Assembly: GCA_044892505.1 (NCBI GenBank)
Contig: CM097882.1
Location: forward strand, 293,632,001 to 293,696,000
Origin: Schmidtea nova
Taxonomy: Eukaryota
Length of the DNA: 64,000 nucleotides
Reading direction: 5' to 3'
Part shown: piece by piece, positions 808 to 31,428 of the stretch
Position numbering within the stretch: position 1 is the stretch's first letter
Layout: every line of letters starts with the position of its first letter
The notes under the pieces: generated by a model
Database searches by the model: none
Told to the model about the DNA's origin: nothing
Seen by the model: only the letters and a program-made list of their open reading frames with translations
Translations under genes and position numbers: made by a program

Positions 808-1866
808 CAAGGATTCGGAGCGGAGCGGAGCCCGGAGCCCTGTGCGGCTCCGGAGCGGATAATTTGCTTGGAGTAAAGAGCGGAGCAGTGAGTAAAAAAA
901 TTAGAAGGAGCGGAGCGGTTCCGCTCCGCGGTTCCGTTCCGCTCCACATTTTTTTAAAATTTCTTTTCGAAAACGAATGTAGTGTCAGTTTTGGAAAATT
1001 AGTGTAAGTTTTGTTATTTAGGTATCAATTCAAAATTTTTCTTGCCGGGAAAATGAAAAGTTTGCATGTTGGGTCCAAGGTATATAGATTGTTGGGATCT
1101 AAGTTTGTGTTGATGTGTCAAATAACAGCTAATTATAATCTGAAAATTTAAATGTTTTGATTTATATATATTTTGTTTAATTCAGTTTGAGAATTTTAAA
1201 TTATTTACTGTTTGTCTTTTTAAATAATAATATCCTTGGGTAAGTAAGTTTATCATTATCCTCTTGATATTTAGTTTCATTATTCTTCACTTTTCTTTAT
1301 AGGAAAAATATATGAATAATATAAAACATAAAAGTTATTGATACATATATATTTACATGAATTTATATGTAATGTGTAATGTGAGACACAAAGTTTAAAT
1401 AAATTAAAATTAAGAAGTTAAAATAAAGGTAAATTTAAATTAGTTATTTATTTATACTTTTACTATATTTTCATAAGTTTTTATATTTTGTTGGGCCCGC
1501 CAAATCACCTAAAAACACAATAAAACGAACAAAAGCATGAAACAATAAAGAAATAATAAAAATAAAAATAGCAAGAAAAACAAATTAAAAATAACAATAA
1601 AACGACAAATAATAATTGATAAATTTTCAGTAAAAGGAAATTTTGAAAATAAACCGGTAAACAACCGCAAAAGGGGGCCTGAAATAAGAAAAAATAGAAT
1701 TAAATAAAATAATAGTACAAATAATTAATTAATTACTTGGAAAATCAGGACCACCCAGCGAGAAACCGGAAAAGGAAACAAAATAATGTTTAGATTAGAA
1801 TAAAATAATAAAAATACTTTGATGGACGGCCTGATCCTGATTGGTCAATCCAACCAGACGGATCAG

Positions 1867-1874
1867 TATAAATA
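1867..1874 (+). promoter_or_regulatory. Candidate LTR TATA box (TATAAATA), with a candidate splice donor at 2002 (GAA|GTAATT)
   Basis: The same TATAAATA lies ~400 nt into the A LTR (38890-38897, minus), followed ~100 nt later by AG|GTAAAT (38789). Confidence 0.55.
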
Positions 1875-2995
1875 CCGATCCAAAAATCACAGACAGAGAC
1901 GTTTTACATTTTCACTCACAATCAAGACTAAACTTTGATTTGAGTAATAATTTTTGAAAGAACCGAACTTCATACAAGGAACCACACATTCAAGTACGGA
2001 AGTAATTTTTTTATGTTATCTTATATGATGTACCATGATTTTTATTTAATTAAAAGTTTATATGTAAACGTTATTTTATTTTTTCATTGATTATTTTTAT
2101 TGACACTTTAATGCATATAGCTATACTTCCTATGCTGCTCACGCGGCGAGGGAGTCCGAGTCGTCGTCGTGGGGCCTCAGGGTCTCACATGGCGGTTCAA
2201 CCTTTTTATTGTTTCTGGTTTTCATATTTAATTTGGTAGTTGAAATAATTAAATTACATCATTCAAATTTAACTAGATATTTATCAGCGAGATTAGAGAA
2301 TTTTAATGCTTATTTAGTCGAGTAAAATTTTCAGTCACAGAATATCGATAATGCGAATACGTCCAGACAGTTTTCTGGCGATAAGTAAAAAGTCATCATT
2401 TAGTTGCACAGAGGACGAGTGTCGAGGGCTAAATAGGGAGAGTAGCTGGGTAATGGGAGACACCCCAGGGTAGGGTGTATTCAGCATCATAACGCATAGA
2501 AAAATGAGCCTAATTTGAACCTCCAGCATGGAGAATAATGATAAATAAATAAAACTAATTCATATAATTTCGATAAAATGGAAAATTTCAATGAAGGTTA
2601 AAGTCCGATTTCATTCGGAATTAGTATCTCACCTACAGCGTCACCCGATCGATAAATACCGATCGCATTGGAATGCGACGGAGAATCCACATCAAGTCAT
2701 GAAACTCTAAAAATAGACCGATCGTCGTACATGGCGCGGATATCTAATTTATCTTCCGATCGCTGTATATAGCGCGGAGAATTTTCGAATAAATTTTATA
2801 TTTTCCTTACTGCTGTACATAGCACAGGATTAATTATGAACTCTTTATTCCGACCATGGTAGATCACGGCGGAGAGAAAGAAAATTTACCTTATTATTTT
2901 TAAGTAACTTTTGTGATTATATACAGTATAATTAAATTATCAACGAATTTTCCCCCCTTAACTCAGATATTTTATATCCAATAAATGTAATATAG

Positions 2996-3475
2996 ATGTC
3001 GACAGCTGAACTTATAAATCGATTGACTCAACTACGGAATATGGAACAAGTGAATCTGCGAAATGGAAATATCTCGCAGCTCAAGGATCTACCAGCATCG
3101 ATATTGCGGACCCTCAACTGCCAAATGTATAAGTGGCGACAGGGGTTTGGCCGAAAATGCCCGTTCTCGATATGGACAGGAGGGCACGACCAAATATTCT
3201 ATCGAGGAGGACCGAACTGGCCGATTTCTCAAAGGCCGTACTCGAACAAATTTGGCCGCCTTGTCGTACTGATCAAGGACACCGATGGACGGACAAGCCG
3301 TGTAATTTATTGGGGGCATATCCCTCGTCGGGAACTATGCCAACTAGGCCTACACGAATTCCTGCCACGAAAACCGTTCGGCAAGGAGTGCCAGAAAGGA
3401 CAACCCTCATTCTCTTGGGCTCGTCTCCGTCAGAAACCGATTAACAGCGAACTGCATAGCCTGTTTCGGAGATAA
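2996..3475 (+). CDS. LTR-encoded ORF1, unknown function (159 aa)
   Basis: ATG directly after a TAG acceptor-like site. Segment IKDTDGRTSRVIYWGHIPRRELCQLG aligns with FLDEQNRPRWLLSTGMMSGRALHQLG in the A LTR ORF 37174-37806. Confidence 0.6.
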   Translation: MSTAELINRLTQLRNMEQVNLRNGNISQLKDLPASILRTLNCQMYKWRQGFGRKCPFSIWTGGHDQIFYRGGPNWPISQRPYSNKFGRLVVLIKDTDGRTSRVIYWGHIPRRELCQLGLHEFLPRKPFGKECQKGQPSFSWARLRQKPINSELHSLFRR

Positions 3476-3661
3476 GAACTGATTGTCAAATCTTTAAAAG
3501 TTGTGATTAAATATTAATATTCAGCAGTGTTTTTGTTTTGTTGTTTGGAGTTTTAGTATTGTGTTTTTAATAATTCATATTCGTGACCTAATAATCCTAT
3601 GATCAGATTTTAAATTTCATATAATTAAATCATAGAGTAAATATCCTAAATAAATTATAGA

Positions 3662-4258
3662 ATGAATCCCGATTTGATGCAGAGAGAATTAGAAAAGATG
3701 TGGCGGATTCGGAGGGCCCAGGACAAGGAAGTGGGTCTCCTCAAGGCACAATTGATCAAAGCAGAGGCACAGATTGCATATTTGCGCAAAAGCTGGTTTG
3801 CTCCGGCCCGAATGAAGGAGCAAATCAGTAAAACCGAGCGCGCCCAACAGACTGCAGCCGAGTACCAAATGGAATGGGAGGCTACAAAGATAGAACTCCG
3901 AAAATGCCTCCATTCCGTAACTGCCTCATATATTGAGAGGGAGCTCAGAGAGCAAATCCGTCCAGTTACGTACCAAGCTTGGACATCAGAGAAGAAGACT
4001 TTGAATTCCATTGGTACGGATGTCGCAGATCTAATCGAAAATCGGAATGAGACAGCTCCTGCAGTAAATTCAACCACCTCATCGGTAAATGCGCACCAGA
4101 AACGCAAGCGCATTGGGCAGAAACGGCGGAGACAGAGAAAATTATTTGCCCAGCAATTACAAAGCCAAGTCGATGGTCTACATCAGATGACTGAGGAGGC
4201 ATTATTGACAGAGATTTTTCCTCCGGCGGGAGTTTTTACCGAACTCATTAAAAATTAA
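3662..4258 (+). CDS. LTR-encoded ORF2, coiled-coil plus basic NLS-like motif (198 aa)
   Basis: Homologous to A LTR ORF 36422-36985 (WFAPARMK/WFNPERVK; KRKRIGQKRRRQR/KRRNRLGAKKRRERR). Confidence 0.75.
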   Translation: MNPDLMQRELEKMWRIRRAQDKEVGLLKAQLIKAEAQIAYLRKSWFAPARMKEQISKTERAQQTAAEYQMEWEATKIELRKCLHSVTASYIERELREQIRPVTYQAWTSEKKTLNSIGTDVADLIENRNETAPAVNSTTSSVNAHQKRKRIGQKRRRQRKLFAQQLQSQVDGLHQMTEEALLTEIFPPAGVFTELIKN

Positions 4259-4498
4259 ATAAATTGTTGTATTGGCTTAAGAATTTTATCGTTCATTTAA
4301 ATTGATTTAATTAGCTTTACCAATGATTAGGTAAAGATAGAACAAAAGTATAAATTCATTTTACAAAATATCGAATAGAGATAATTAAATAATTAAGCGA
4401 GCATTCGTTGAAACACTTCTCGCAGACTGAGCAATAATAAAATTAAATTTTCTGAAAGATTAACGCGGAATACATAAGTAGATGATTAAAGCATAAGT

Positions 4499-4640
4499 CC
4501 TTCTAACGGCAGCGATGAACCCGTGAACATAAATGGGGAGTAGTACTAGCGATAGTGCTCACCTGCCCATCATTGTTCAACCACCCTGCGCATCACCAAC
4601 TTGATTATATAGGGAAATAATCAAGGGCGCTTGAGTGTAG
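4499..4640 (+). other. Conserved structured RNA element near the LTR 3' end (U5-like)
   Basis: Blocks CCTTCTA(A/T)CGG, G(A/G)ACCC and GCTCAC, a GNRA hairpin and an AA-bulged hairpin with a TAGGGA loop recur with compensatory changes at 36127-36257(-) and 55565-55697(-), and partly at 55331-55460(+). Confidence 0.65.
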
Positions 4641-4732
4641 AATTGCAATTTTATGCATGATCATGGATGGGGGATCCCTAGTCATTGTTAGAGCATTTTT
4701 CATCTAACCCCTCCATGAACCCAGCATAAATT

Positions 4733-4750
4733 TGGGGGCTCAGCCGGGAT
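4733..4750 (+). other. Primer-binding site, tRNA-Pro type
   Basis: TGGGGGCTCAGCCGGGAT versus the canonical Pro PBS TGGGGGCTCGTCCGGGAT; 6-nt TAAATT spacer after the LTR. Confidence 0.85.
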
Positions 4751-5067
4751 CAACTTCGTTTTATCGGAAAAATGTAAATGTAAAATCTGCAGAGAAGTTT
4801 AAAATGCTCGTGTCAATTAATTTAATAAAAAAAAAAAAAAAACAGAAAGGTCATAATTAAATGTAAATTATTGTATAAAAATTAAATAAACAACACGGCA
4901 GTGAACAAAAGTGAAGTTAAAAATTAAATGCATGCATAGATAATTTGTCGGGACGACAATTTTCGGAAACACGGGGGGAGTTAAATATTAAAAGATACAA
5001 AACGAAACATATTACTACCTTAAAAACGATAAAAATAACAGAGTTAAAACGATTATTTATTCAGTAA

Positions 5068-5529
5068 ATGGAGGAAAAACTGAAAGAAATTGAAGAATTT
5101 CTCAACACAGAAAGCGAAACATTAGAAACGATTGGCAAGAAAATAAACCGATTTAGAGAGACTGAATTTCAGGAACCCACAACACAGACTGAAGAGACGG
5201 ATGAGTTAATAAAGATAACAGAAAGAACAGGTAAAATCGACATAAAGACCCGCTACAAATGGTACAGAGCACGATTAGAAAATGCAGAACTAAACATTAA
5301 GTGCAGGCAAATAGAACAACGATTAACCCCAACATACAATCGATGGAGGGCGCAGGGGGTAGAAGCAGCGAAAAAATACCGACAGTGCTATATATGTGAG
5401 GATAGGGAGATACAAATTATGTTTTTACCTTGCGGACATTTTCGTTTTTGTAAAATATGTGCCAGCAAGCGCGACCTATGTCCTATGTGCAACCTGATGA
5501 TAGACGATAAAATTATTGTATATTTATAG
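5068..5529 (+). CDS. Leader ORF with C-terminal C3HC4 RING of IAP-like type (153 aa)
   Basis: CYICEDREIQIMFLPCGHFRFCKICASKRDLCPMC...KIIVYL at the extreme C-terminus. No BIR domain seen. Homologue in A at 35025-35483. Confidence 0.85.
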   Translation: MEEKLKEIEEFLNTESETLETIGKKINRFRETEFQEPTTQTEETDELIKITERTGKIDIKTRYKWYRARLENAELNIKCRQIEQRLTPTYNRWRAQGVEAAKKYRQCYICEDREIQIMFLPCGHFRFCKICASKRDLCPMCNLMIDDKIIVYL

Positions 5530-6005: not shown

Positions 6006-6240
6006 GTTAGGAGATTTGTCCCTTGAAACAAAGGGTTAGGAGATTTGTCCCTTGAAACAAAGGGTTAGGAGATTTGTCCCTTGAAACAAAGGGTTATGAG
6101 ATTTGTCCCTTGAAACAAAGGGTTAGGAGATTTGTCCCTTGAAACAAAGGGTTATGAGATTTGTCCCTTGAAACAAAGGGTTATGAGATTTGTCCCTTGA
6201 AACAAAGGGTTATTAGCGGTTTGTCCCTTGAAAAAAAGGG
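6006..6240 (+). repeat. Tandem array, 29-bp unit x8 (GTTAGGAGATTTGTCCCTTGAAACAAAGG)
   Basis: Read directly; each unit contains a CCCTT-GAAACA-AAGGG hairpin. Confidence 0.95.
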
Positions 6241-6293
6241 TTGAGGCCAATGAGCCTTATTGAATGACCTAGCTAGGCGTTATGGAGAGATTA

Positions 6294-6630
6294 AACTGAG
6301 GCCAATAGAGCCATTTGAGAGATTAAATTGAGGCCAATAGAGCCATTTGAGAGATTAAATTGAGGCCAAGAGAGCCATTTGAGAGATTAAATTGAGGCCA
6401 ATAGAGCCATTTGAGAGATTAAATTGAGGCCAAGAGAGCCATTTGAGAGATTAAATTGAGGCCAATAGAGCCATTTGAGAGATTAAATTGAGGCCAATAG
6501 AGCCATTTGAGAGATTAAATTGAGGCCAATAGAGCCATTTGAGAGATTAAATTGAGGCCAATAGAGCCATTTGAGAGATTAAATTGAGGCCAATAGAGCC
6601 ATGGGAGATATAAAATTGAGGCCAGAAGAG
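6294..6630 (+). repeat. Tandem array, 32-bp unit x~11 (AAATTGAGGCCAATAGAGCCATTTGAGAGATT)
   Basis: GAGGCCAA recurs every 32 nt from 6298 to 6618. Confidence 0.95.
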
Positions 6631-7245
6631 CCATAGTGAATTATAGAGATATCCGGATAAATAGTAACAGGGGGAATATAGACCCATAGTGTAATCGTCG
6701 ACGAGATTTAGAGTAGTGCGCACTAGTAGTTAAGAGAATGCGAGTAAAGCTGATTATGCAACCTTAAGTAAAGCATGCAAGGAGAATAGTAAAAATTTGG
6801 GCTGACCGGAGCAACCGGCAGAATGAGTAAAACGATTGCTAACAGGGAATAATGAGTAGAGATGATAAAATAATGATAAACGAGTCAGAAAGACTCAGGG
6901 AATTAGAGCGCTCGAGCGACCAATAATTTGGGAAACTGTGGGAAAAGTAATCGATTTGATAAAACATAGATAATTATTACGACGTAAATAGATAATTGTG
7001 ACCAGTCTATAGATAATTTAAATAGACTAAAAATAAAGGGGAATCTGGGAATTGGGAGATAATGAAAACCCAGTAATAAGTAATCCCGAAAGAAAGGGAA
7101 TAAAAGCGCGACGATAACAATAATGTATCGTTGAGGACCTTTGTATTTTAGATATACAAATCAATCAAAGCAATCAATCAAACAAGAAGAATCAGAACAC
7201 GATAATAGATAGGACAAGAAAATTGATAATATAAAAGTAATCCAG

Positions 7246-10200
7246 TTGAGAAAAGGAGCAAAGAGTGTCGTAATAAAGCCAACGGAAAAGAAAGTCGGTA
7301 GCAACATTAACAAAAAAGACAAAACTAGTACTACAACAAAAAAGCAGAAAGCCGGCAAAGATAACCCACAAGGGAGTAAAGCGAGAAAAATAATAAGAGA
7401 TAAATCGATTATCGAAAACGATAAATTGTCAGTAGTAAGCAACAGTTCAAGTAACAAAGAAAACCAAGCAGAACCCAAAGAGAGCCAAACAAGTGAAATA
7501 GAAGTAGACGAAACTAATAACGATAATATAGAAGAATTAGAGAGTGAGGTAGAACAAGAAGTAGAAATCAACGAGAGCGATAACGATAGTATAATATCAG
7601 ATCACGAAGTAATAAGAGAAACAGAAAGTGATTCAAGCTCGAGTGGAACAGAAGACGAACATAACAACGAGTTAGAAACAAGAGGAAACGAAAGTAAAAT
7701 AACTCAAGACAGCGGAATCGAAATGAGCGAACCAAGAGAAGAAATAAAGGATAAATTTTCGGGAGAACCGTTTAACGGAGATGCGAGTAAATTAGAAATT
7801 TTTCTCAAGGAATTTGGCATATTCGTGGAAGTATGCAAATGGAAAGCTGAGACAACAGCAAGTAGAATACAGTTATATTTGAAAGAATGCGCATTGGACC
7901 TATATTTGGAAGCAAAAAACGGTACCAATCCACCTGCAGACTGGCCAGCGATAAAGGACTTTTTCCAACAAACATTTGGAATAAATAGAGTGCTGAGCGA
8001 AGCATTCATAGAATTTTCAATGAGAAAACAAAAGATGAATGAATCTAACGCGGTATACGCGAGCGAATTGAAAAAATTAGCAAAATCGGTATTCAAGGAT
8101 GGGAGTCCAATAAACGAGGAATTAATGGCAGCTATCTTCATAGGAGGATTAAGAAGACCCGACATAAGAGCGCAAGTAGGATGCCAAGGATGCAAAACCA
8201 TAGATCAAGCGTTAGAAACAGCTAACCGATTTGAATTGCATATGATAGGAAGCGAAGGCAGAATTTATTTAGCCATGGACACAGCACAAACCGAACCAGA
8301 AGTGAATCTCAACAATCACATTCCAAATTCGCAACAATTAAACCGACCACCCCCTCAACGAAGGAATGAAGGAAATAAAGTGCAGAACTTTGAAAATCAA
8401 AACAATTACAACCCTCAAAGACAAACAAAACAATGTAAAACATGCGGGAAGTTGGGACACTGGCAGCAAGAATGCTATCAAAATTTGAATTGCGGAAAAT
8501 GTGGAGTCAAAGGACACTCGGAAAGCAGATGTTCTACAATAATCTGTTTTAATTGCGGACGACCTGGTCACTATTCAAGAAATTGCGGACAAAAAAGTAA
8601 TCAACGAGGAAACTGGCAGAGTAATGGGAACCGACCAAATTACGGAAATCAAGCAAATACCGTAAACCGACCAGATTATGGGAACCAACAAGTCAATAAT
8701 AACAATAATCAGAACAAAACCACCCCCAAAGAAATACATTTAATGCAAGAAGTCCAAAGATTGACGGAACTTATAAACAATACGACGAGAGGAAATCCGC
8801 AAACCAATCAACAGCAAATTAGCATGATGAGAAAAATAGAAAGCGAAAACGAACGATTGAATCGAGAAAGTCAAGCACGACACGCTCAGGAATGGGCAAG
8901 AATACAAAGAGAGGATGAGCAAAAACAGCAAGAAAGAGAACGACAACCTCTAAGAATTAACATGCTAAGAGCAACAAACCAAACAGACACTCGCGAGAAA
9001 GAAACCACACTGGAAATGAATTCGATAGACCCAAATCCAGCCGACAACGAAAGTCGAAAAGAGATAGTACAAAAAGATGAAGAAGTAGAAAAAGAAACAA
9101 AAAAGGAAGTGGAAACCGAGATAAACCAGGAAGGGGGAAAGGAGATTTGGAAAAAAGGAATGATGGTAATCATGCCCAACGACCATATGTTTCGATTCCA
9201 ATATAACGCAAAAGAAAAGGTGGAAATACTGTTCAATAAAGTAAACCAGATGATTCCAGGAGTGACAAAACTGCCCAGAGAAGCGTTCTTACAAATAGGA
9301 GATGCACCATCAGTAAAATTGAAATTAACGGATATATGGGAAAACGTGGGAGTAACAGAGACAAAAAGAAATGTGATGAGAATTAAAGAAATAGAACCAG
9401 AAGAAATTCCACCACCAATACGTCACGAAACCCGAATCCGGCGAATATTTGAAGGAAAAATGATAAGAAGACGTTTAAAAGAGATAGACGAGTTGGGAAA
9501 GAAAATGGAAAAAGTCGAAGTAATAGAGGACAAGAGTGAACCAACACAAGAAATTGACAAAAACGAACCAGAACCAACGGAGAATATACAAGGAGAAACG
9601 AACCAAACAGCACATATTAATATGTTAAGAAATACCACCAGAGAGTTCTCCGATGAAGAAGAAGACAGTGACATCAGTAGCCTAGCAGGAGACATATTAA
9701 ATGAATCCGAAGACGAAAATAAAGAGAGAGAAGTAATAAAGACCTCAGAACCTACACAGATAAAAGTAGATGAAATCCAGAAATTACTAGATAACTCACT
9801 AGAAGTAATATATAACGAAGAGTTCATGGACAAGAAACAATATCGGAAATTCATGAAAGCATTACTGCAAATGAACTACAAAGAATGGTTACAAGACCGG
9901 GAAGTAGACATGTTAAATCGATACGTAGGGAAATTAATAGAGGAACCACTTCTCAATTACACCATCTCAATAATAATAAATACATCAACACCAAGAATCT
10001 GGATCAAAACTCCATTCACAGATGATATCTACAGATGGGTAGAGGATAGACTAGGGAGCTCATATAAAAACAAATTCATCTATTCGCAGAATAGACTCGT
10101 AAAGAAAAGAACGCACTTAGTAGAAACAGGTATATGGCCAGGAGAAATAACTTTGTTATCAATATGTGATGAAAAGGAAGAAGAGAACCTACAAGAAGTT

Positions 10201-13200
10201 GCAAGGGAAGCAAACACGTGCTTCGAAAGGAGAATAAAACCTCGGTTAGAATACGAAAAAGAACGAGTCTTACGAAAGAATCTAAATTTCCTGATAGAAC
10301 AAATCATACCACAAGTCAAAAAACATAGAAAAGAATTAATGAGAAGCGAATACGAGAAATTGAAACGATGTATTGAGTGCATACGTGACACAAGCCACAC
10401 GAGATGGTCACAGATCTCACACGACAAATTAATCGCAAAAATGGGAAAAACAATGTTCAGGCAAGGGAAAATAACAGATCTAAAAATTTCAGTAGAATTA
10501 CCTAATGAGGACACCAAAGAAATTGAAGTGGTAGCGGATTGCACCATTAAAGAATTAATAAATGTCATCAACGAGACACTAGTGCAAAGAGAACCAGAAG
10601 ACGAATGGGAAGACGACATAATCATACAATACAACGAACACGTATTATGGGATCACGATGAGAGACGATTATATAAAATCGGTATATGGGATAATCACCA
10701 AACAATCCACGTTAGCAGAATGGACGATACACCCAGAGAAACTGCTAAAGATGAGAAAAGAGAACGGGAACGACGGAAAGAAGTTGTGCGTAAATTACAA
10801 CAAATAGTAGAAATTTATCGAAATTGGCGAATTTGGCCAGAGTGGGAAAATGTATTAGAACAACTCAACCTCAACAGACGAATACGAACACCCGTAGAGA
10901 AACAATGGAACGAGAAAGGAAAATGTTGGGAACCAAAAGAAGGGGAATATGAAGAAGAATATAAAAGAGGAATTGAAGATGACTGCGAACCAGAGATAGG
11001 AAGAGTTTGCATGGTAACAAGGAAAGCTACGCCAATAGACCTAGATGGACCAGAAACAGCGGCCATGTGGTTAGAAAGGGAAAAGCAAAAAACGGAAGAA
11101 TTTGTCGAAATATTAAAAACCAATGAGCACGGTAAGAGAAAATTAATAAAAGGCCTCGCAGATTTTTTCGTGGTAAATGGGGAAGATATAACATGCTTGC
11201 GTAAAGTAGCAAAAGCAATCGCGGAATATAAAAGAGTTAACGAGTGGTGTCCAGAACAACTAGACCACGTAATTAGGAAATGGAGAAATCAAGAATTCTC
11301 GCAAGAAATTCCACAGAAAGTACATTTAAGAATAATATATCCAAACAAGGATAAGGAAGAGCTTTGGGTAGGAATAGCAGAAAAAATTCGAGATATTAAA
11401 AAGAAATTGAGATACGAACCACCATTCCATTTACAACACCAAGGACGATCATTAGATAACAGTTTGGAAATCGGAATAACGCCAGCACAATTAGACCTCA
11501 TGAATACCTTGACAGTAGAAGCAATAGCGGGTCAACCATTGAAACGTAAAGAAGAAAACCATAAACCACACGGAAGTATAAGTACGCCAAGCCCGATGAA
11601 ATCAGTACTAACACCAGGGACAAGTTCAAGACGATCTGAGACAACACCCAGAGGAACCAGAGAAAGGACTCCACCACAACCATACGACGTGGACGAAATT
11701 TTAACGGATAGCGACGATATGATAGAAGAGTTAACCGAATTAACAAGGGAAAAGGACGATAACATTTTCGAAAGAATACAAGAACTACCTACGACAATAC
11801 AAGTAACCAACACCGGAGAAGCAGAAGTCGAAGAAGAAATAATAATAGAAGAAGTAAACGATCTAACAGAAGACGAAACGAGAGGAGCGAATGTCGAAAA
11901 TGTACAATTAACACAAGAAATGGAAAGATGGTTAGAAGAAAGAGCTAACGAACCAAGAGATGTCACCGAAGAAACCGGACGAGCAACAAGGTTTGTGGAA
12001 ATAGGTACAGGAATGGATAAACGACCTCGAGGTAGACCCAAGACAGACCCAGCAACAGTAGTTATCAGAAATAAGGACGAAAAGAGACAAGATCAATGGG
12101 AATTATGTTTAAAGAAATTAAACAAAATCGCAGAGATGAAAGAAAAAGAGACAACACCAATATGTCAAGGGGAGGAATGGATATCGAAAACAATAATGGA
12201 ACTATTGGCAATAATTGATCCGGAATTAAGAAAATACTGGCGTATAACGGAGATAAGCGAAAAGGCGAAGTCACTACACAGCGCAATCGCACCCATCTTA
12301 CCGGAATTCATAAAAGAGAAGACGAAATCAAATCACTTAGACTGGCAAGGAACCACTATGTTAATAAAGAAACTGACAGAAGGAGCGGAAACAGATAACA
12401 AATACGTAATAGCTATTGCATACACGATCTACAATCTGTTGACACTGAGTAGAGGTCGACCAAAACCCACTGCATTAGAGAGACATATAAAAAATACCGC
12501 AAAAATTATAGCGAGAGAAATAGAACCATACGTCATTAACAAAGGAGGATGGGAAACATTTATAAAAACTAACCAGAAGAAAACACAAGCCAAGAATATG
12601 AAAAAGAAATTCGAAAAAATATTGGAAGAGTTAGGAAAAGAACAAGCAGGAACAGGAAACGCAAAGTCATCAATGAATCTGAGTGCTATAATAATGATGA
12701 TGTTGATTTGGATGATTAGCACCGATAGCGCAACAGCATTCGAAGTGTTTGATTGCGACCAAATGAAGTTAGGAGAAAAGTATTCATTGAGAGGTACGGA
12801 GCAATGCAAAGATGCGACTCCAGTAGAGTTGCAAAAGATTAAAAAAGAACAATGGTACCACGTGTATCAAGAAGCAGAACTCATAAAGACAATGGTGAAT
12901 GAATGTAAAGTGCAGAAGACGAGATTCGCATTCTACTGCGGGAGAGGACATTATTCAGCAATTGTCATGCCAGGAACGGAAAGAGAACCAATCGTGTTAC
13001 AAGGAGAAGACTGCGAAGCACTGTTTAAACATGGAGAAGTAACAACAAGAGATAAAATCAAGATAAGAGGAAAGCCAGGAATGATGATGCAACAGACGTA
13101 CTATGTAGCAGGACGGATTACGGGAGGAGAAGGATATTGTCAAGGAGAAACCTACCCGATATTCGGAGTACCCGCAACCAACCTAGTAGTAATGGATACG

Positions 13201-19200: not shown

Positions 19201-22200
19201 GGACAAAACGCACTGTTAAGATACCTTTTGAAATTTACTTGTGATCAAAAGACATTACTAACCTTATTAGACAGAGGAAACATAAACATCACAAAGAATG
19301 AAGAAGAATACAAATTCGATAAAGAGAAGGAAGCCTTATTCAATAAGATTAGGAAATGGTGTGCGAAACCACTTGATAAACTAATAACATACAAAGACAT
19401 AAGCAATTTTAACGAGAAATACCAGACGATAGTAAGCGAATATGAGGAATTAGTAAAAATCTTAAACCATCCCGAAAAATGCAAACAGGTTTTAGAGAAA
19501 AAAGAAAGAGAAAGTAACAAGAAACTCACACCACTCTTCAAAGCAGAAGCACCATACCAAGCTAGACTAGATGCGATACAAGAAAAAGCAAAAGAATTGT
19601 TACCGGAATTCGAGAATAGTAAACATGCACTGGAAATACTCGGCGCATTAGTTGAAAAAGTACACGCATACGCAAAAGGAACATACAATGGTAACGACAT
19701 AGTAATAATAAAAAAGGAGATGCCAGTAACATTCCTATTACCAAAAGACGGAATAATGCCCATACATAGAGCTCTACGAAATGGCAAAGATAGGAAAGTA
19801 ATGGAAATTGCAAGAGTAATGCTAAATTGCGGAAGCAATATGAATATGATAGACGAGAAAGGAGATACACTTATGGTATTTGCAGCAAGGGCCAAAACGA
19901 AAACAAAGGTATTAGAAGAACTATACAAAGCAGGTGCAGGACTTACAGGAAAGACAGATAAAGATAATTCGATATTGGATGTAGCATTATTAACACACAA
20001 TTGGGAAATGGTCAATTTCATTAAAACCGTCCCAAATCAGGAAGAAATAGATCACCTAACTGATACGGTCAAGAAACCCAGTGTACTAGCAATGATGAAC
20101 AACGTCGAACTAACAGAATCAATACTTACGTGGATAAATCCTAATACTAACGAACCAGCATTCAGGATTAATAAGTTTACAGAACATAACCAAAACTGGT
20201 GTATAAGAAGTGCCTTAATAACGTATAAATGGCCAGAGATATTGAAGATGTTTATGGAAAGAAAGGATCTAAGAATCACAACCAGCCCGAAAGAAGAAAA
20301 ATACACAGGCAAATGGAAAGAATTGATGAAGACATACATCAACAATTGGATCAAGGCCAAAAAGGAAATCTTGGAACATAAATCCACTAACAAAGTAATA
20401 CCGGAGCAGGTAGAAACACAAGAATTTGAGGCAAGTAATCTAACGACATTAGCGTATGCGAAACTAATAGAAGAAATCAATGTCGAGGACGACATTTTCG
20501 ACGAGCCAGGGGGAGATGACAACACAGATAGTGACGACGATAACAACTCAGAAAATTCAAGCGATCACGAACCACCCGATAAAGAGGATAACGAGAGAAA
20601 AGACAAGAAACGAGACAAAGAAGAAAAGAAAAATGAAGACGAAAAACAAAAAGATGAAGATGGAGAACAAGGAAAAAACGACCAAGGAAATAAAAATGAC
20701 ACCCAAAGAACAGGGTATAAGTCAACCATAAAACCATTCTTCAAACCAGAATTACTATTACTAACAATGATTATAACGTTAATTAATCCAAGTCAGGGAA
20801 TGACATGTGAAGAAAGGGCAATAATACAAATAAAAAACGCGAAAGGAATCGAACGAGTATGTTGGTCGAAAAAGGACAAAACTACGGAACAAAATAGCCC
20901 GATGGATTGCAGAATCTCAAAACACGAGCAAGAGATCATAGAGATCAACGACCTAGATCTAGATACCTGGTACAAAATATGCACCGTTAGGAAACAAAAG
21001 CATCCAAGATCACACAACACAATCGCATGTGCAAAATACCAAACACCTAAAGCAGCCATGACAATACAACAGTCACCCAAAGGAGATTACATCATCGGAA
21101 AATGTGGAAGAACAGAGACACAGGGAACAGAAAACAAAAAACCCCAGGCAATAGATAAGCAAACAACACCAACCCTACGAATTACAATAGAGAGGCCCGA
21201 AACAAGAATTGCCACAAACGAAACCGAAAGAGTGTCTTACCAAATGGAAGTATTATGCTTAGCACTCATACTAATAATGATAAAACGATTAAAGGAAGGA
21301 ATAGAAATTGAAACTATGACAATAACAGAAGTAGAAGATACACAGAATACTAACATAAAATGTTGGGCGAGGAATAACGAGGAAATCGGCGTAAATGAAA
21401 TAAGGAAAAGTCGAAAACCAACAACGAATAAAGTAATTAAAGTATCCAAAGTAAAAGCAGATAAGACGTACAAACTATGCCTACTAGAAAAAGAGACAAA
21501 CAAGAAAGGTACCACAAAATGTAAAACATTTCAACCCGGAGAAGTAATAAAGTTCAGAAGGAGAACGAGGAAGAGAAATAAACAAATCAAGCGGAAAGTA
21601 AACATAACATTAGAAATAAAAGAGATAGAACCAAATGTGAAAGGAGTATGCTGGAGGAAGTACGAAAAGGAAACAAATAAAAGAACGACACCACAATGTC
21701 AAACAAGCACAGGAGCAACAACGATACAAATAAAAGGTCTAGAAAGTAAACAAACCTACGAAATATGTTTGGTAAAGAAAAATGATCAGATAACGATAAA
21801 CGACCTAGAATGCGGAATACATACAACTTCATCCGGAACAAGAACCAAAACGTTAACACGGAAAAATAAAAGGAAACAACGAAACAAAGAAAAACCGAAG
21901 TACACCACTACCTTTAAAAACAATAAACAACCAATAAGCCAGGAAGCTACGACAAAACCCGAGGGAAAGACATCAGCAACTCTAACATTATGGAAAATAG
22001 AGAATAAAACATTAGAAATATGTTGGATAATAGTTCAGAAACATATAAGAAGACAATCAAGAGAGTGCAGAAAAACAAATAAAGAAATCAAGATCGAAAA
22101 ACTACAATTTAATAGCGAGTATGAAGTATGTACAATAGAAAAAACGGACGCACTAGGAAACCAACAAGAAAGATGCGAAACCTACTATACACCAGCGAAC

Positions 22201-24314: not shown

Positions 24315-24671
24315 ATGACCGAACAGGACGAAACAACTGAAATAACTATGGCTATGAGATGGAAGGCACAATGTGATTTATTAGTACGAACAGTCAACTC
24401 ATTACAGAACCAATTAGCGGAAAGACAAATGTTATTATCAGAAAGTTATAACAATTGTTTCGAACAATTACACAGAATAGAGGAACAACAAAGAGCGATA
24501 ACTGAACTCACCAGAGAAAATCAAACGATAAACAACACCAATCAAAGACAAGCAATAGAAATAAACCATTTAACACGAGGAGAAAGAGAAGGATCCGAAG
24601 AAGGATGGATGAGTTGGGTAATAAATAGATTAAACAACGAAGCGGAACCAGATTCAACGAATGAGCCATAG
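24315..24671 (+). CDS. Accessory coiled-coil ORF (118 aa), unknown function
   Basis: ATG 3 nt after TTTAG; heptad-rich; same codon style as the polyprotein. Confidence 0.7.
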   Translation: MTEQDETTEITMAMRWKAQCDLLVRTVNSLQNQLAERQMLLSESYNNCFEQLHRIEEQQRAITELTRENQTINNTNQRQAIEINHLTRGEREGSEEGWMSWVINRLNNEAEPDSTNEP

Positions 24672-24763: not shown

Positions 24764-26140
24764 ATGGACAGAGAAGAACGAATAATCGAAATTTTGAGAC
24801 TAGAAAACAGAAAATGGAGTAAGAGGCTCACATGCGGGAAGTGTAACAATTTATTACGAGAACCCAGACAAACGATATGTGGATGTAGAATATGTACAAA
24901 ATGTATACAAGAATTGGATGCAACAGGAATAACAACATGCCCAGAATGTAAAGAAGGAGGAATAGTGTTGGACGAAACCAGAACGGACAAAGCAACCCAA
25001 AGAGAAATTATGAGCACCACAACGGAGTGCGTAAATACACCTTGTACATGGCAAGGACAAATAAGTAATCTGGAAAACCATATGGAAAAATGCGAGGAAA
25101 AGAGAGCCGAATGCGAGAAATGCCAACAGACAATAACTCTAAAGAAGAGAGAACAACACAAGGAAGAATGTAAAGAAGAAGAAATCGCATGCGAGTATTG
25201 TGAAGCCCGAGAAACAAGGAGAAAAATCGAAGAAGAACACTTGAATATAACAGAGGAGAAAGTATGCGGACAATATGTAAGTAAATGTCCAAACAATTGT
25301 GAAATAACAGAAGAAATAAAATTACATGAACATTGGAAACTATGTACCGAAAGGCCAAGAGAATGCCCATATAACAAGCATGGATGCAAGGAAAAGCGGA
25401 CGCGAAAAACAATGCAACAACATCTAGAAGAAGCAGCACTAACGCATGTGGAAATGACAAACGAAACGACTAAAGAAACGGAACGGACAATTCAGAAATT
25501 AGAAAAAGAAGTAGAATCACATAAAATAATGATGAGTTTACTACTAGAAACAAGAGAGCAGTTTGAACTAACTCGCGAAAGAATGGAAAAGAAAATAATA
25601 GCCATAGAAGAATTAGGAAAAGGAATGAAAATACAATATAATCAATTAATACGAGAAATTGACGAAAGAATGGACTTACCAATCGCACCTTACCTATGGA
25701 AAGTAACAGATTTCAGAGACAAATTAGCAGAAGCCAGAAATATGACGAAAACAGCAGTAATAAGCCCACCATTTTATTTATGGAAAAACGGGGTTAAAAT
25801 AAGATTGAAAGTATACCCAAATGGAGACGGAAGAGGACAAGGAACACACGTGTCAATATTCTTCTCACTATGTAAAGGAGAATACGATGACCTAATAGAA
25901 TGGCCCTTGAAAATAGGAGTCATTATAAGAATCAAAAGTACGGGAGAACCAGTAGAAAAGTTCTTTGAAACAGACAAACATTCGAGTACGAGCGAAAAGC
26001 CAACGACAGAATGCGGACTAGCAGCAGGAGAACCAATGTTTATAAGGAAAGAAAACCTATGGGAGCAACTATATGCAGACACGCTATACATAGAGATGGA
26101 GAGGCATGAGAAAGCAGACAGAAAAGGATGGTTGGCGTAA
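24764..26140 (+). CDS. Full-length intronless TRAF-family protein (RING, TRAF zinc fingers, coiled coil, MATH)
   Basis: CGKCNNLLREPRQTICGCRICTKC..CPEC; CPYNKHGC..MQQHLEE; YLWKVTDF..SPPFY..LKVYPNGDGRGQGTHVSIFFSLCKGEYDDLIEWP. Confidence 0.95.
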   Translation: MDREERIIEILRLENRKWSKRLTCGKCNNLLREPRQTICGCRICTKCIQELDATGITTCPECKEGGIVLDETRTDKATQREIMSTTTECVNTPCTWQGQISNLENHMEKCEEKRAECEKCQQTITLKKREQHKEECKEEEIACEYCEARETRRKIEEEHLNITEEKVCGQYVSKCPNNCEITEEIKLHEHWKLCTERPRECPYNKHGCKEKRTRKTMQQHLEEAALTHVEMTNETTKETERTIQKLEKEVESHKIMMSLLLETREQFELTRERMEKKIIAIEELGKGMKIQYNQLIREIDERMDLPIAPYLWKVTDFRDKLAEARNMTKTAVISPPFYLWKNGVKIRLKVYPNGDGRGQGTHVSIFFSLCKGEYDDLIEWPLKIGVIIRIKSTGEPVEKFFETDKHSSTSEKPTTECGLAAGEPMFIRKENLWEQLYADTLYIEMERHEKADRKGWLA

Positions 26141-26253: not shown

Positions 26254-27315
26254 ATGGGAAATATAGAAGTAACCTTACAAGAAGTAACAGTACATCAAGA
26301 CGAAATGATCAGAAATCACATGGAGCGGATTGGGATATGGATTCATGCCTATTATCGAAAACAGGAGGAATTGGAAAGACAAACCCAAGCACTAAGAGAA
26401 GCCGAGAAAACGAATCAAAGAAGTCGAGAAAAAATAGAAGAAGTCTACAAACTGCTAAGGCAACAAAATGAATACTACAAAGAGATGATGAAAGAGCGAC
26501 GAGAGGATAGAGATAGACAACAGATAAAAACCGACCATAAGATTCAGTCAATCACAGAACAAGCAAGATATTGGAAGAAAGAGGCAAAAGACTCTTACAA
26601 GGAAGCAAGGGAGATAATAGAACGAACAGCGTACAGCGATGATTGGAAACTGTTTAAAGAGATCGATGAATTAAAAGAGGAATTAGGGCAAAAGATCAGT
26701 CAAGAAGCGTCAAATAAAGTATGGAGTAAGAAAAGACAACAATTTATCAGAGAACAAGCCAAGAAAATAAAAGAATTAACTTATCAAGTACAAAGAATGG
26801 GAGAAGATTTAGCCAATCAAGAACAATTAAAAGGTATGCTGACCGGAATGTGGAATCACAAGGAAGAAAACATGAAAAGAGACATAAATGGATATCAAGG
26901 AGTGATCACCCAGAAGAAAATAGAATTAAAAAGAACTAAAGAAAGAATGGAAGAAACGAGGCAGAATTATGAAGAGAACATAACAAATTTGACAAAAGAA
27001 AACGAAGAACTGAGAAAGAAGTTGGCAGAAAAACCAACACCAATAAAAGAAACAAGTATCACAGCAGCAGTGACCGAAATGATGGAGAAGGAAGAGAGAG
27101 AGAGAAAATTGGCAGAACTAGAAAAACAAATTGAAACCCTAACAGAACAGGCGAACTATCTGGAATACTTATTAGATGAAGAGATCCAGATATCCCACAC
27201 ATACCGAGAAGAAGTCGAAATGTGGAGGAGCACGGTAATATGGATGCCACTCCCCATAAATCAGGTGGAACCTCAAGACGAAGGTTTTTACGAACCCAAC
27301 GAAACCCTTGTATAA
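26254..27315 (+). CDS. Accessory long coiled-coil ORF (353 aa), unknown function
   Basis: ATG after TATAG|AA; charged helical heptads throughout. Confidence 0.75.
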   Translation: MGNIEVTLQEVTVHQDEMIRNHMERIGIWIHAYYRKQEELERQTQALREAEKTNQRSREKIEEVYKLLRQQNEYYKEMMKERREDRDRQQIKTDHKIQSITEQARYWKKEAKDSYKEAREIIERTAYSDDWKLFKEIDELKEELGQKISQEASNKVWSKKRQQFIREQAKKIKELTYQVQRMGEDLANQEQLKGMLTGMWNHKEENMKRDINGYQGVITQKKIELKRTKERMEETRQNYEENITNLTKENEELRKKLAEKPTPIKETSITAAVTEMMEKEERERKLAELEKQIETLTEQANYLEYLLDEEIQISHTYREEVEMWRSTVIWMPLPINQVEPQDEGFYEPNETLV

Positions 27316-27390: not shown

Positions 27391-27960
27391 ATGAGAAAGC
27401 TCGCAATAGCAACACTCCTATGGTTAACAACCATTACCCTACAGAGAGAAGATCTACAACTAACCGAAACCCAATTACGAGTTCTACCCGACAAAACCTA
27501 TCAGAAAGTAGACAGCCTAATCGAAGAAGTAATTAAAGAAATCAACGAATTCCGACAGAAATTCCCCCACAATCAAGATCGTCAAATCCAACAAATCTTC
27601 GATAATCAACAACTGAAACTAGAAGAAACCCGAAAAATCCGGAAAGAAGGTAGAGAACCCATAAAAAGCCTATCCCAAGCTGAAATAGAATATCAAGAGA
27701 AATGGATCATAGCAATCATCATAATCCTAGCAGTCAGCACAACTATCATCGCAATCACAATCCTGCTTGCCTCATATAGAATAAAAATCCTAAAACAAAA
27801 GCAGAAAATCTACAACCAAACCTCCAGACGAGATAACCGAGCTCAAAGACGAATAAGGAGCCATCTCAACCATATTCAAACCCACTACGAGCTACAAATG
27901 ATCAACGAGAGGACCCGAACTCAACCCCAAGCGAGCCAGACGATCGAACAAATTGTATAA
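27391..27960 (+). CDS. Accessory type I membrane protein (signal, helical ectodomain, TM, basic tail)
   Basis: MRKLAIATLLWLTTITLQ signal-like start; TM WIIAIIIILAVSTTIIAITILLASY. The ORF track starts it at GTG 27358. Confidence 0.7.
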   Translation: MRKLAIATLLWLTTITLQREDLQLTETQLRVLPDKTYQKVDSLIEEVIKEINEFRQKFPHNQDRQIQQIFDNQQLKLEETRKIRKEGREPIKSLSQAEIEYQEKWIIAIIIILAVSTTIIAITILLASYRIKILKQKQKIYNQTSRRDNRAQRRIRSHLNHIQTHYELQMINERTRTQPQASQTIEQIV

Positions 27961-28148: not shown

Positions 28149-28164
28149 AGGGGTCCCCGGGTGA
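28149..28164 (+). other. Candidate polypurine-tract position (AGGGGTCCCCGGGTGA) before the 3' LTR
   Basis: G-rich stretch immediately 5' of the 3' LTR TG; not a pure purine run. Confidence 0.5.
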
Positions 28165-31100
28165 TGTTGGGCCCGCCAAATCACCTAAAAACACAATAAA
28201 ACGAACAAAAGCATGAAACAATAAAGAAATAATAAAAATAAAAATAGCAAGAAAAACAAATTAAAAATAACAATAAAACGACAAATAATAATTGATAAAT
28301 TTTCAGTAAAAGGAAATTTTGAAAATAAACCGGTAAACAACCGCAAAAGGGGGCCTGAAATAAGAAAAAATAGAATTAAATAAAATAATAGTACAAATAA
28401 TTAATTAATTACTTGGAAAATCAGGACCACCCAGCGAGAAACCGGAAAAGGAAACAAAATAATGTTTAGATTAGAATAAAATAATAAAAATACTTTGATG
28501 GACGGCCTGATCCTGATTGGTCAATCCAACCAGACGGATCAGTATAAATACCGATCCAAAAATCACAGACAGAGACGTTTTACATTTTCACTCACAATCA
28601 AGACTAAACTTTGATTTGAGTAATAATTTTTGAAAGAACCGAACTTCATACAAGGAACCACACATTCAAGTACGGAAGTAATTTTTTTATGTTATCTTAT
28701 ATGATGTACCCATGATTTTTATTTAATTAAAAGTTTATATGTAAACGTTATTTTATTTTTTCATTGATTATTTTTATTGACACTTTAATGCATATAGCTA
28801 TACTTCCTATGCTGCTCACGCGGCGAGGGAGTCCGAGTCGTCGTCGTGGGGCCTCAGGGTCTCACATGGCGGTTCAACCTTTTTATTGTTTCTGGTTTTC
28901 ATATTTAATTTGGTAGTTGAAATAATTAAATTACATCATTCAAATTTAACTAGATATTTATCAGCGAGATTAGAGAATTTTAATGCTTATTTAGTCGAGT
29001 AAAATTTTCAGTCACAGAATATCGATAATGCGAATACGTCCAGACAGTTTTCTGGCGATAAGTAAAAAGTCATCATTTAGTTGCACAGAGGACGAGTGTC
29101 GAGGGCTAAATAGGGAGAGTAGCTGGGTAATGGGAGACACCCCAGGGTAGGGTGTATTCAGCATCATAACGCATAGAAAAATGAGCCTAATTTGAACCTC
29201 CAGCATGGAGAATAATGATAAATAAATAAAACTAATTCATATAATTTCGATAAAATGGAAAATTTCAATGAAGGTTAAAGTCCGATTTCATTCGGAATTA
29301 GTATCTCACCTACAGCGTCACCCGATCGATAAATACCGATCGCATTGGAATGCGACGGAGAATCCACATCAAGTCATGAAACTCTAAAAATAGACCGATC
29401 GTCGTACATGGCGCGGATATCTAATTTATCTTCCGATCGCTGTATATAGCGCGGAGAATTTTCGAATAAATTTTATATTTTCCTGACTGCTGTACATAGC
29501 ACAGGATTAATTATGAACTCTTTATTCCGACCATGGTAGATCACGGCGGAGAGAAAGAAAATTTACCTTATTATTTTTAAGTAACTTTTGTGATTATATA
29601 CAGTATAATTAAATTATCAACGAATTTTCCCCCCTTAACTCAGATATTTTATATCCAATAAATGTAATATAGATGTCGACAGCTGAACTTATAAATCGAT
29701 TGACTCAACTACGGAATATGGAACAAGTGAATCTGCGAAATGGAAATATCTCGCAGCTCAAGGATCTACCAGCATCGATATTGCGGACCCTCAACTGCCA
29801 AATGTATAAGTGGCGACAGGGGTTTGGCCGAAAATGCCCGTTCTCGATATGGACAGGAGGGCACGACCAAATATTCTATCGAGGAGGACCGAACTGGCCG
29901 ATTTCTCAAAGGCCGTACTCGAACAAATTTGGCCGCCTTGTCGTACTGATCAAGGACACCGATGGACGGACAAGCCGTGTAATTTATTGGGGGCATATCC
30001 CTCGTCGGGAACTATGCCAACTAGGCCTACACGAATTCCTGCCACGAAAACCGTTCGGCAAGGAGTGCCAGAAAGGACAACCCTCATTCTCTTGGGCTCG
30101 TCTCCGTCAGAAACCGATTAACAGCGAACTGCATAGCCTGTTTCGGAGATAAGAACTGATTGTCAAATCTTTAAAAGTTGTGATTAAATATTAATATTCA
30201 GCAGTGTTTTTGTTTTGTTGTTTGGAGTTTTAGTATTGTGTTTTTAATAATTCATATTCGTGACCTAATAATCCTATGATCAGATTTTAAATTTCATATA
30301 ATTAAATCATAGAGTAAATATCCTAAATAAATTATAGAATGAATCCCGATTTGATGCAGAGAGAATTAGAAAAGATGTGGCGGATTCGGAGGGCCCAGGA
30401 CAAGGAAGTGGGTCTCCTCAAGGCACAATTGATCAAAGCAGAGGCACAGATTGCATATTTGCGCAAAAGCTGGTTTGCTCCGGCCCGAATGAAGGAGCAA
30501 ATCAGTAAAACCGAGCGCGCCCAACAGACTGCAGCCGAGTACCAAATGGAATGGGAGGCTACAAAGATAGAACTCCGAAAATGCCTCCATTCCGTAACTG
30601 CCTCATATATTGAGAGGGAGCTCAGAGAGCAAATCCGTCCAGTTACGTACCAAGCTTGGACATCAGAGAAGAAGACTGTGAATTCCATTGGTACGGATGT
30701 CGCAGATCTAATCGAAAATCGGAATGAGACAGCTCCTGCAGTAAATTCAACCACCTCATCGGTAAATGCGCACCAGAAACGCAAGCGCATTGGGCAGAAA
30801 CGGCGGAGACAGAGAAAATTATTTGCCCAGCAATTACAAAGCCAAGTCGATGGTCTACATCAGATGACCGAGGAGGCATTATTGACAGAGATTTTTCCTC
30901 CGGCGGGAGTTTTTACCGAACTCATTAAAAATTAAATAAATTGTTGTATTGGCTTAAGAATTTTATCGTTCATTTAAATTGATTTAATTAGCTTTACCAA
31001 TGATTAGGTAAAGATAGAACAAAAGTATAAATTCATTTTACAAAATATCGAATAGAGATAATTAAATAATTAAGCGAGCATTCGTTGAAACACTTCTCGC

Positions 31101-31403
31101 AGACTGAGCAATAATAAAATTAAATTTTCTGAAAGATTAACGCGGAATACATAAGTAGATGATTAAAGCATAAGTCCTTCTAACGGCAGCGATGAACCCG
31201 TGAACATAAATGGGGAGTAGTACTAGCGATAGTGCTCACCTGCCCATCATTGTTCAACCACCCTGCGCATCACCAACTTGATTATATAGGGAAATAATCA
31301 AGGGCGCTTGAGTGTAGAATTGCAATTTTATGCATGATCATGGATGGGGGATCCCTAGTCATTGTTAGAGCATTTTTCATCTAACCCCTCCATGAACCCA
31401 GCA
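28165..31403 (+). repeat. Element B 3' LTR (3239 bp), containing copies of ORF1 (29673-30152) and ORF2 (30339-30935)
   Basis: Direct repeat of 1489-4726, followed by the ATTT TSD. Confidence 0.97.
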
Positions 31404-31428
31404 ATTTAAATAATTTTCTTTACATAGA

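Follow-up and report, generated by a model that had tools for sequence, protein, structure and literature searches.

What does a retrotransposon of about 30 kb carry besides the genes for its own copying, and is this load kept because it is useful? The question is raised by a 64,000-nt stretch of Schmidtea nova DNA (assembly GCA_044892505.1, contig CM097882.1, positions 293,632,001 to 293,696,000), hereafter the window, in which a giant long terminal repeat (LTR) retroelement, called A here, occupies 1489..31403 on the forward strand. A preliminary description, drawn from the letters alone, had presented A as a complete, recent and enveloped element equipped with a cell-death, NF-kB and ubiquitin toolkit. 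Our results confirm that A is a real, intact and very young 30-kb retrotransposon, show that every sampled cargo region, including the open reading frames (ORFs) within the LTR, is under purifying selection, and make it somewhat probable that A is an enveloped, cell-to-cell mobile element with a survival-type cargo.

Integrity and insertion site of element A

Element A has a total length of 29,915 bp, and its two LTRs (~3.24 kb each) display 99.877% identity across 3,239 aligned nt, with 3 substitutions and 1 indel, in agreement with the very recent insertion claimed earlier. The target-site duplication (TSD) of 4 bp does not reflect chance in AT-rich sequence, since in 21 uninterrupted genomic copies of the host miniature inverted-repeat transposable element (MITE), which serve as empty sites, the 4-mer is present once (each copy with 1 mismatch, and 0 matches for the reversed-pattern control). 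The primer-binding site, located 6 nt past the 5′ LTR, is complementary to the 3′ end of the host tRNA-Pro(TGG) genes. Note that these genes form a tandem array with a 308-bp period on C1 (~459.61-459.65 Mb), that the stretch of it which was read contains four tRNA-Pro(TGG) and one called tRNA-Ile, and that the array pattern has 1,195 genomic matches at no more than 1 mismatch. As announced in the preliminary description, no disabling mutation was found, the 5,488-aa polyprotein and the seven accessory ORFs (159, 198, 153, 118, 458, 353 and 189 aa) all being open. In addition, contigs of four public runs, all from one study that is possibly the assembly's own source, cover all 30 bins of 11500-31400.

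A young, recombining family with a selected cargo

Of 4,211 candidates in the genome search with the LTR, 40 were scored and yielded 59 matches, and the search with the TRAF ORF gave at least 92 full-length matches (92 of 92 scored, a set biased to the best copies) with 94-100% identity, 89 of them without a stop. Ten sister copies were chosen by LTR pairing, and four stretches were read from each. All nine testable copies (the tenth was not testable) displayed 4-bp TSDs and LTR pairs with 99.87-100% identity, yet identity between A and the sampled copies is only 96-98%, which implies that insertions were recent in many lineages. In the regions read, uncompensated frame-breaking indels occur in 4 of the 10 copies, and four single stops were counted. 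The copies are mosaic: across 27 windows along A, the nearest copy is not always the same but one of 7. Four-gamete incompatibility (765 sites) increases from 0.23 for sites less than 100 nt apart to 0.58-0.61 where the distance exceeds 300 nt. These figures include recurrent mutation, but recurrent mutation alone would not produce a distance-dependent rise. Altogether, family A is a large, young and recombining population that is probably still replicating.

Selection was measured as omega (dN/dS) from variant counts over 11 sequences, with a transition correction (kappa 2.07) taken from the non-coding LTR, in a sample without Gag and aa 300-790. Values near 1 in the accessory regions, which the preliminary description had named as a result that would speak against it, were not seen: these regions gave 0.05-0.51, versus 1.20, 0.89 and 1.06 in three non-coding control frames. 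The strongest constraint was found in the core, where env is as constrained as the reverse transcriptase (RT; omega 0.03 each) and the integrase (IN) reaches 0.06; values for the cargo are given in Table 1, to which transmembrane (TM) and tail regions add 0.47 and 0.35. All coding regions were significant (p<=0.02 at kappa 2.07), the weakest signal being that of the 189-aa ORF (p 0.02), whose significance is lost at kappa 6 (p 0.10). Our data therefore provide, for family A, population-level support that selection keeps every sampled cargo ORF.

A sister family and a probable exchange of env

The window also contains part of a sister element, B, on the reverse strand, which runs from 39296, continues at 807-1 and ends ~20 kb before the window. 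A three-level nest was thus formed: B came first, then a MITE with 16-nt inverted ends and an 8-bp TSD entered the gag of B, and A finally entered the MITE. The LTRs of B are 99.65% identical (11 mismatches), the 3′ one being cut near its end by other sequence, and B shows the gene order of A with counterparts of all seven accessory ORFs (LTR ORF1 weakly). Of 19 domains compared between A and B, 18 have synonymous sites that are saturated or close to it, RT included (proportion of synonymous differences, pS, 0.62-0.82). Env is the exception, with 97% amino acid identity, pS 0.26 and dS 0.32, and the similarity is confined to a sharply bounded block that starts near aa 1700 and reaches aa 2260 or beyond.

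In the simplest reading of these comparisons, one env would have spread into families A and B by recombination after their divergence. Synonymous constraint as the source of the shared env is disfavoured, as env shows ordinary synonymous variation within family A (137 changes in 621 codons, compared with 87 in 501 for the ankyrin region and 118 in 361 for RT). A local conversion of B by its neighbour A was also considered and is rejected, since the env of B is 93-94% identical to all 11 A-family sequences (70-72% for its Bcl2-like stretch) and since its whole Bcl2-env stretch is present at 39 other places with 96-97% identity.

Domains of the polyprotein

The Pfam scan covered eight ORFs, namely the polyprotein and the seven accessory ORFs. 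Above its cut-off, the polyprotein contains a CCHC knuckle, a PF24664 env, an aspartic protease (PR), RT, RNase H (RH), integrase and ankyrin, and the Gag region adds a weak Retrotran_gag_2 match (E 0.1). Env matches PF24664, the Monjiviricetes fusion glycoprotein, with E 1.2e-71 (best stretch aa 1926-2266), and lies in frame between gag and PR (at aa 2453). The env is not errantivirus-like, but matches mononegavirus-type fusion proteins and is placed before pol. The env gave nothing meaningful against PDB sequences, and among viral contigs 3 pattern matches were found, of which 0 were confirmed. Between PR and RT, a dUTPase-like stretch without a Pfam match reaches only E 0.4-0.75 to dCTP deaminase/dUTPase. 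A short repeated motif between the domains (aa 338, 366, 412, 632 and 3600) could represent protease cleavage sites.

Concerning the other domains announced in the preliminary description, Pfam upheld the ankyrins, TRAF and RING together with env, and a low-confidence model agreed with the FN3-TM proteins, whereas the Bcl-2 and ubiquitin-like (UBL) calls fared less well. The two putative UBLs are weakly supported. UBL1 shows a sub-threshold Ubiquitin_4 match (E 0.068) and a pairwise z of 3.4 to the Pfam-positive UBL of a relative, and the Pfam search of the UBL2 region gave no ubiquitin match. UBL2 reaches z 6.3 to the UBL of a decayed element of the window (C, see below), which itself reaches z 23.9 to the Pfam-positive UBL of the metagenomic relative P0016. 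For the Bcl-2-like region, the 951-aa model (mean predicted local distance difference test, pLDDT, 36.6, from a shallow alignment) gave Foldseek matches of which 17 of the 47 listed belong to the Bcl-2 family, every one with E>=0.59, and Bcl-xL could be aligned to aa 1514-1580 of this model with Z 4.6 (root-mean-square deviation, rmsd, 2.9 over 65 residues). VIA-wide found only generic helical hairpins in the same model, which is too poor to exclude Bcl-2 or ubiquitin folds, and aa 900-1660 gave 0 matches among 8,000 scored comparisons with shorter proteins. Given the fold match and the published position just before env, a Bcl-2-like nature of this helical region is plausible.

The C-terminal tail consists of seven related units of ~80 aa in two blocks, each closed by a TM segment. 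Units 1-3 of the second block are duplicates of the corresponding units of the first (z 28, 27 and 11), and the tail of B has a single block of four units. The units are of extracellular type and carry conserved cysteines. In the AlphaFold2 model, made for block I only, three units form beta-sandwiches, and Foldseek gave 109 matches at E<=0.001 for this model, the best being fibronectin FN3 arrays (E 3e-8). VIA-align placed units 1, 4 and 3 on FN3 domains with Z 7.8, 7.5 and 7.0 (rmsd 2.1-2.9 over 70-73 residues). FN3-clan Pfam matches are weak (E 0.09-0.12) and concern 4 of the 7 units of A and 0 of the 4 of B, and ESM Atlas offered FN3 clusters at 0.75-0.79, below the trust level and hence a lead only. 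No homologue of the tail was found among 1.84 billion representative sequences, and the alignment profile of the units gave one unrelated match (E 0.047) against PDB sequences. The modelled structures lend moderate confidence to an FN3 fold, that is, a seven-stranded beta-sandwich, for these C-terminal units.

Accessory ORFs

The 458-aa ORF, with zf-TRAF and MATH above the Pfam cut-off, reads as a complete intronless TRAF: it matches the MATH domains of TRAF3/5/2 and the RING-zinc region of TRAF6/2, its best database match being a mollusc TRAF2-like protein (25%). The IAP-type RING announced for the 153-aa ORF was retained, its closest solved relatives being the XIAP/cIAP RINGs (E 2e-10). In contrast to the B-IAP of Burro1, no BIR accompanies it, this domain being absent from all eight ORFs in Pfam and from a six-frame motif scan. 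The two ORFs located inside the LTR have counterparts in B, with 31% identity (E 3e-19) for LTR ORF2 and a weak match (E 0.016) for LTR ORF1, which has no Pfam match.

Proposed mechanism and its alternatives

The life cycle that we favour for A would begin with an RNA of ~27 kb from the 5′ LTR, followed by reverse transcription primed by tRNA-Pro and integration with a 4-bp duplication. The polyprotein would thread the endoplasmic reticulum as an RNA-virus polyprotein does: Gag, UBL and Bcl2-like parts would remain cytosolic, an internal signal peptide (aa ~1651-1672) would translocate Env, the TM of Env would return PR-RT-IN and the ankyrins to the cytosol, and later signal-like segments would export the FN3 arrays, each held by its own TM. 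The hydrophobic segments fit this topology. Processing would involve signal peptidase and the element's own protease, and should signal peptidase separate Env from the Gag half, Pol would be tethered to the tail of Env and reach the particle in this way instead of as Gag-Pol. Subgenomic RNAs are the likely source of the proteins encoded outside the polyprotein. Budding of enveloped particles, and passage from cell to cell within the animal, is the most likely route of spread. The TRAF, IAP-type RING, ankyrin and Bcl-2-like proteins that A has captured would help the producing cell to survive, or dampen its stress and immune signalling, a role that we infer from what is known of TRAFs and IAPs and from the report on Burro1. 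For the FN3 proteins, we propose a function at the cell surface, either in adhesion or as decoys. A bolder form of this proposal, in which A and B are a currently infectious, enveloped giant metavirus of flatworms, with a membrane-threaded polyprotein, Pol on the tail of Env, a TRAF/RING/Bcl-2-like kit as in large DNA viruses and an env swapped between families as its entry protein sweeps, is possible but rather doubtful.

Several observations weigh against the proposed cycle or its cargo assignments. Directly before the 3′ LTR, a classical polypurine tract was not seen. The Bcl-2-like region has no match in Pfam, PDB sequences or ESM Atlas, its eight helices belong to a model of a 951-aa stretch with pLDDT 36.6, and none of its Foldseek matches reached E 0.001. 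The FN3 model has a mean pLDDT of 45 and a best Z of 7.8, and Z values under 8 can reflect a common arrangement. Two additional short hydrophobic segments within the FN3 blocks leave the topology uncertain. The anti-apoptotic mechanism of Burro1 is not simply transferable to A, since A has no BIR. Finally, purifying selection is evidence of usefulness to the element and not of which host pathway is touched.

Alternatively, A could be a purely intracellular stem-cell retrotransposon, with an Env used only for budding or fusion at internal membranes and a cargo that gives carrier cells, in cell competition or regeneration, a survival edge from which the host may also benefit. Recombination and purifying selection indeed require no extracellular step, a host benefit is reported for Burro1 (Lee et al., as cited in a passage of PMC13465017), and Burro1 RNA is PIWI-controlled in somatic tissues according to a passage of PMC8532177. 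We consider this explanation unlikely. The constraint on env equals that on RT, and env was exchanged between families that diverged deeply, in agreement with selection on a protein used for entry; the seven FN3 units, of extracellular type and with conserved cysteines, suggest a role at the cell surface; and A has no BIR. Still less probable is a cargo that serves only the element's own cycle (assembly, trafficking, protein turnover or competitor exclusion) with little role in apoptosis or NF-kB signalling. It would agree with the weak Bcl-2 and UBL support, with a motif at the BH1-groove position of the helical region that looks unlike the canonical one, with RING-only and coiled-coil ORFs that have no pathway assignment, and with the FN3 and TM regions being the fastest evolving (omega 0.26-0.51). 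A complete TRAF and an XIAP-like RING are nevertheless signalling-type proteins, and the same cargo set recurs across the Burro families described in PMC6431247. An assembly artefact, or a dead element with neutral captured host sequence, would find some room in the frame-breaking indels of 4 of the 10 sampled copies and in the single stops, but is refuted to the point of near impossibility by the empty-site TSD, the at least 92 full-length TRAF matches and omega values far below the controls; the public-run contigs over all 30 bins, with the same reserve as to their source, speak in the same sense.

Our population data also support an env that is selected as strongly as RT and has moved between families, and family A adds a captured array of FN3 surface proteins. 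Should particles exist, this would mean that an animal retroelement can carry accessory genes comparable to those of large DNA viruses, in a host amenable to RNA interference. In addition, a planarian TRAF expansion has been reported, with no transposon link drawn in the relevant passages of PMC6109357; since intronless full-length TRAFs occur in at least 92 copies, part of this expansion may be transposon cargo.

Features of the window and neighbouring sequences

Table 1. Positions in the window of element A, its parts and the surrounding sequences (omega as defined in the text; signal-like and TM segments called by hydrophobicity)
Feature	Position	Strand	Omega	Basis and remarks
hAT-like MITE (~1 kb), left part	808..1488	+		8-bp TSD; insertion target of A
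TSD of A, 4 bp (ATTT/ATTT)	1485..1488; second copy 31404-31407	+		sequence and empty sites
5′ LTR	1489..4726	+		3,238 bp; TG...CA ends; LTR alignment
LTR ORF1, 159 aa	2996..3475; 3′ LTR copy 29673-30152	+	0.28	no family
LTR ORF2, 198 aa	3662..4258; 3′ LTR copy 30339-30935	+	0.19	no family
Primer-binding site	4733..4751	+		complementary to tRNA-Pro(TGG) 3′ end
153-aa ORF, C-terminal IAP-type RING	5068..5529	+	0.25	Pfam E 5e-12; 45% identity in B
Tandem repeats, 5′ leader	6006..6634	+		29-nt x8, 32-nt x11
Polyprotein ORF, single, 5,488 aa	7723..24189	+		ORF reading; no internal stop
Gag-like N-terminus, three CCHC knuckles (aa 238-288)	7723..8586	+		sequence; zf-CCHC
Putative UBL1 (aa ~916-1000)	10468..10722	+	0.05	weak
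Putative UBL2 (aa ~1196-1275)	11308..11547	+	0.11	weak
Eight-helix Bcl-2-like region (aa 1470-1640)	12130..12642	+	0.07	position and weak fold match
Env	12670..14592	+	0.03	signal-like aa ~1651-1672, mononegavirus-type fusion ectodomain, TM aa 2237-2255
PR, dUTPase-like remnant (weak), RT, RNase H, integrase	15079..17907	+		Pfam
Two ankyrin-repeat clusters	18781..20300	+	0.15	Pfam
FN3 block I	20800..22506	+	0.26	signal-like segment just upstream; four FN3-like units; TM aa 4910-4928
FN3 block II	22783..24000	+	0.44	three units; TM aa 5408-5426; no counterpart in B
118-aa coiled-coil-like ORF	24315..24671	+	0.15	53% identity in B
TRAF, 458 aa, intronless, full-length	24764..26140	+	0.21	Pfam; RING, zinc fingers, coiled coil, MATH
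353-aa coiled-coil ORF	26254..27315	+	0.13	54% identity in B
189-aa ORF	27391..27960	+	0.51	hydrophobic N-terminus; one TM (aa 106-124)
G/C-rich stretch before the 3′ LTR	28147-28164			invariant in 10/10 sampled copies; near-identical sequence in B
3′ LTR	28165..31403	+		3,239 bp; LTR alignment
hAT-like MITE, right part	31404..31757	+		same MITE
Sister element B, 5′ part	31758..39296	-		LTR 36037-39296, RING ORF, leader, gag start
Penelope-like fragment	39458-40709	-		RT-like and GIY-YIG parts; between B and C
Element C, decayed, another Burro-like family	40605-45144	-		gag, CCHC, UBL-like, helical region, env start (PF24664 E 5e-20)
Transposase-like frames	47425-48569			split by perfect 160-bp inverted repeat (47807-47966 / 47971-48130)
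TCP-1/CCT chaperonin frame, 449 aa, uninterrupted	49059-50405	-		E 3e-128; host gene or large exon
Ordinary small gypsy-type element, broken	57634-61405	-		
Ordinary small gypsy-type element	61970-63999	+		

Note that the transposase-like frames of Table 1 gave helix-turn-helix matches only, their Tc1/mariner likeness being seen by eye. With the UBL-helical protein of element C, another multi-copy family was detected at ~44% identity, its open frames reaching ~3,450 aa, and other multi-copy families of the genome show Pfam Bcl-2 matches near the cut-off in open frames up to ~3,080 aa. A BIR-containing frame of ~399 aa, multi-copy and found in most of 150 scored matches, also occurs elsewhere in the genome and is possibly a Burro1-like B-IAP family.

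Comparison with known systems

To our knowledge, the Burro-type elements are the largest LTR retrotransposons described. According to the Burro section of PMC6431247, they exceed 30 kb and contain gag, MATH_TRAF, Ubi2/SUMO-like and BCL2-like domains, an in-frame env with mononegavirus matches, dUTPase-like, ankyrin and BIR domains, and were proposed in 2019, as an untested idea, to be proviruses meddling with apoptosis and ubiquitination. The preliminary description was right to recall Burro, since the layout of A matches that account. Indeed, Burro-1 to -4/GYPSM1 of Schmidtea mediterranea and a Burro-like element of Dugesia tigrina share with A a size of ~30 kb, long LTRs, one polyprotein of ~5,000 aa, a Gag with three CCHC knuckles, an env in frame between gag and pol, ankyrins, MATH/TRAF, coiled-coil ORFs and tandem repeats (PMC6431247, same section); their UBL and BCL2-like domains before env and their dUTPase-like domain after PR have putative, weakly matching counterparts in A. 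With its Ty3/gypsy order PR-RT-RH-IN, ankyrins, MATH/TRAF and in-frame env, A very probably belongs with these giant gypsy elements, as judged from their published descriptions. The preliminary description had asked for the novelty of the combination to be checked, and its layout turns out to be largely in print for Burro in that source.

The differences are as follows. In A, the full-length TRAF has an ORF of its own after the polyprotein, whereas MATH lies in ORF1 or an upstream ORF in Burro, and the seven FN3 units with two TMs and the two LTR ORFs go unmentioned in the Burro section of PMC6431247. The B-IAP of Burro1, reported to protect stem cells from apoptosis (Lee et al., as cited in a passage of PMC13465017), combines BIR and RING, while the IAP-related ORF of A has the RING only, and A is not filed as Burro1/GYPSM1 proper for lack of this BIR. 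A passage of PMC11410931 merely mentions Burro. A full-text literature search, covering titles and abstract starts, gave no FN3 or env exchange in Burro elements, and the literature searched contained no seven-FN3 membrane-anchored tail, LTR ORFs or B-shared env; Grohme 2018 and Lee 2026 lay outside this coverage and may have them.

Other enveloped elements are less close. Errantiviruses have their env, which is related to baculovirus F, in an ORF of its own behind pol. Drosophila gypsy and its relatives share with A a Ty3/gypsy RT accompanied by an env, but the env of A is in frame, upstream of PR and of the PF24664 type. A mosquito LTR retrotransposon with a chuvirus glycoprotein reportedly has a BEL/Pao backbone and no accessory cargo. 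Its capture of this glycoprotein is described in PMC7642597 and PMC10084718, and it resembles A as an LTR element with an env from a negative-strand RNA virus glycoprotein, in a different host.

Further relatives come from metagenome assemblies, in which eight polyproteins (P0009-P0012 and P0014-P0017) carry a PF24664 env before PR-RT-IN in one ORF. They are shorter than that of A (3,036-4,057 versus 5,488 aa), with RTs 50-57% identical. In an RT tree of 24 rows (without named Burro sequences, P0025 left out as too short, midpoint root for drawing only), A, B and these eight polyproteins form one clade with 100/100 support. A UBL is found in P0016 (E 4e-5) and P0015 (E 0.018), ankyrins in P0016, and in seven of the eight the C-terminal end is an ectodomain flanked by two hydrophobic segments. 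Between their C-terminal units and the FN3 units of A, hhalign gave 12.7 versus a shuffled maximum of 13.3, which does not support homology, and an FN3 Pfam match was absent from 3 of 3 of their C-terminal segments. Since several of these polyproteins contain more than one aspartic-protease-like domain (two or three) and end in a membrane protein built of repeated beta-rich units, the env-in-frame clade may extend beyond the Burro elements described so far. The core toolkit of A is already published, and what A adds to the published Burro elements consists of membrane-anchored FN3 arrays, a complete TRAF located after the polyprotein, an IAP-like ORF with a RING but no BIR, ORFs within the LTR that are under selection, and a probable exchange of env between families.

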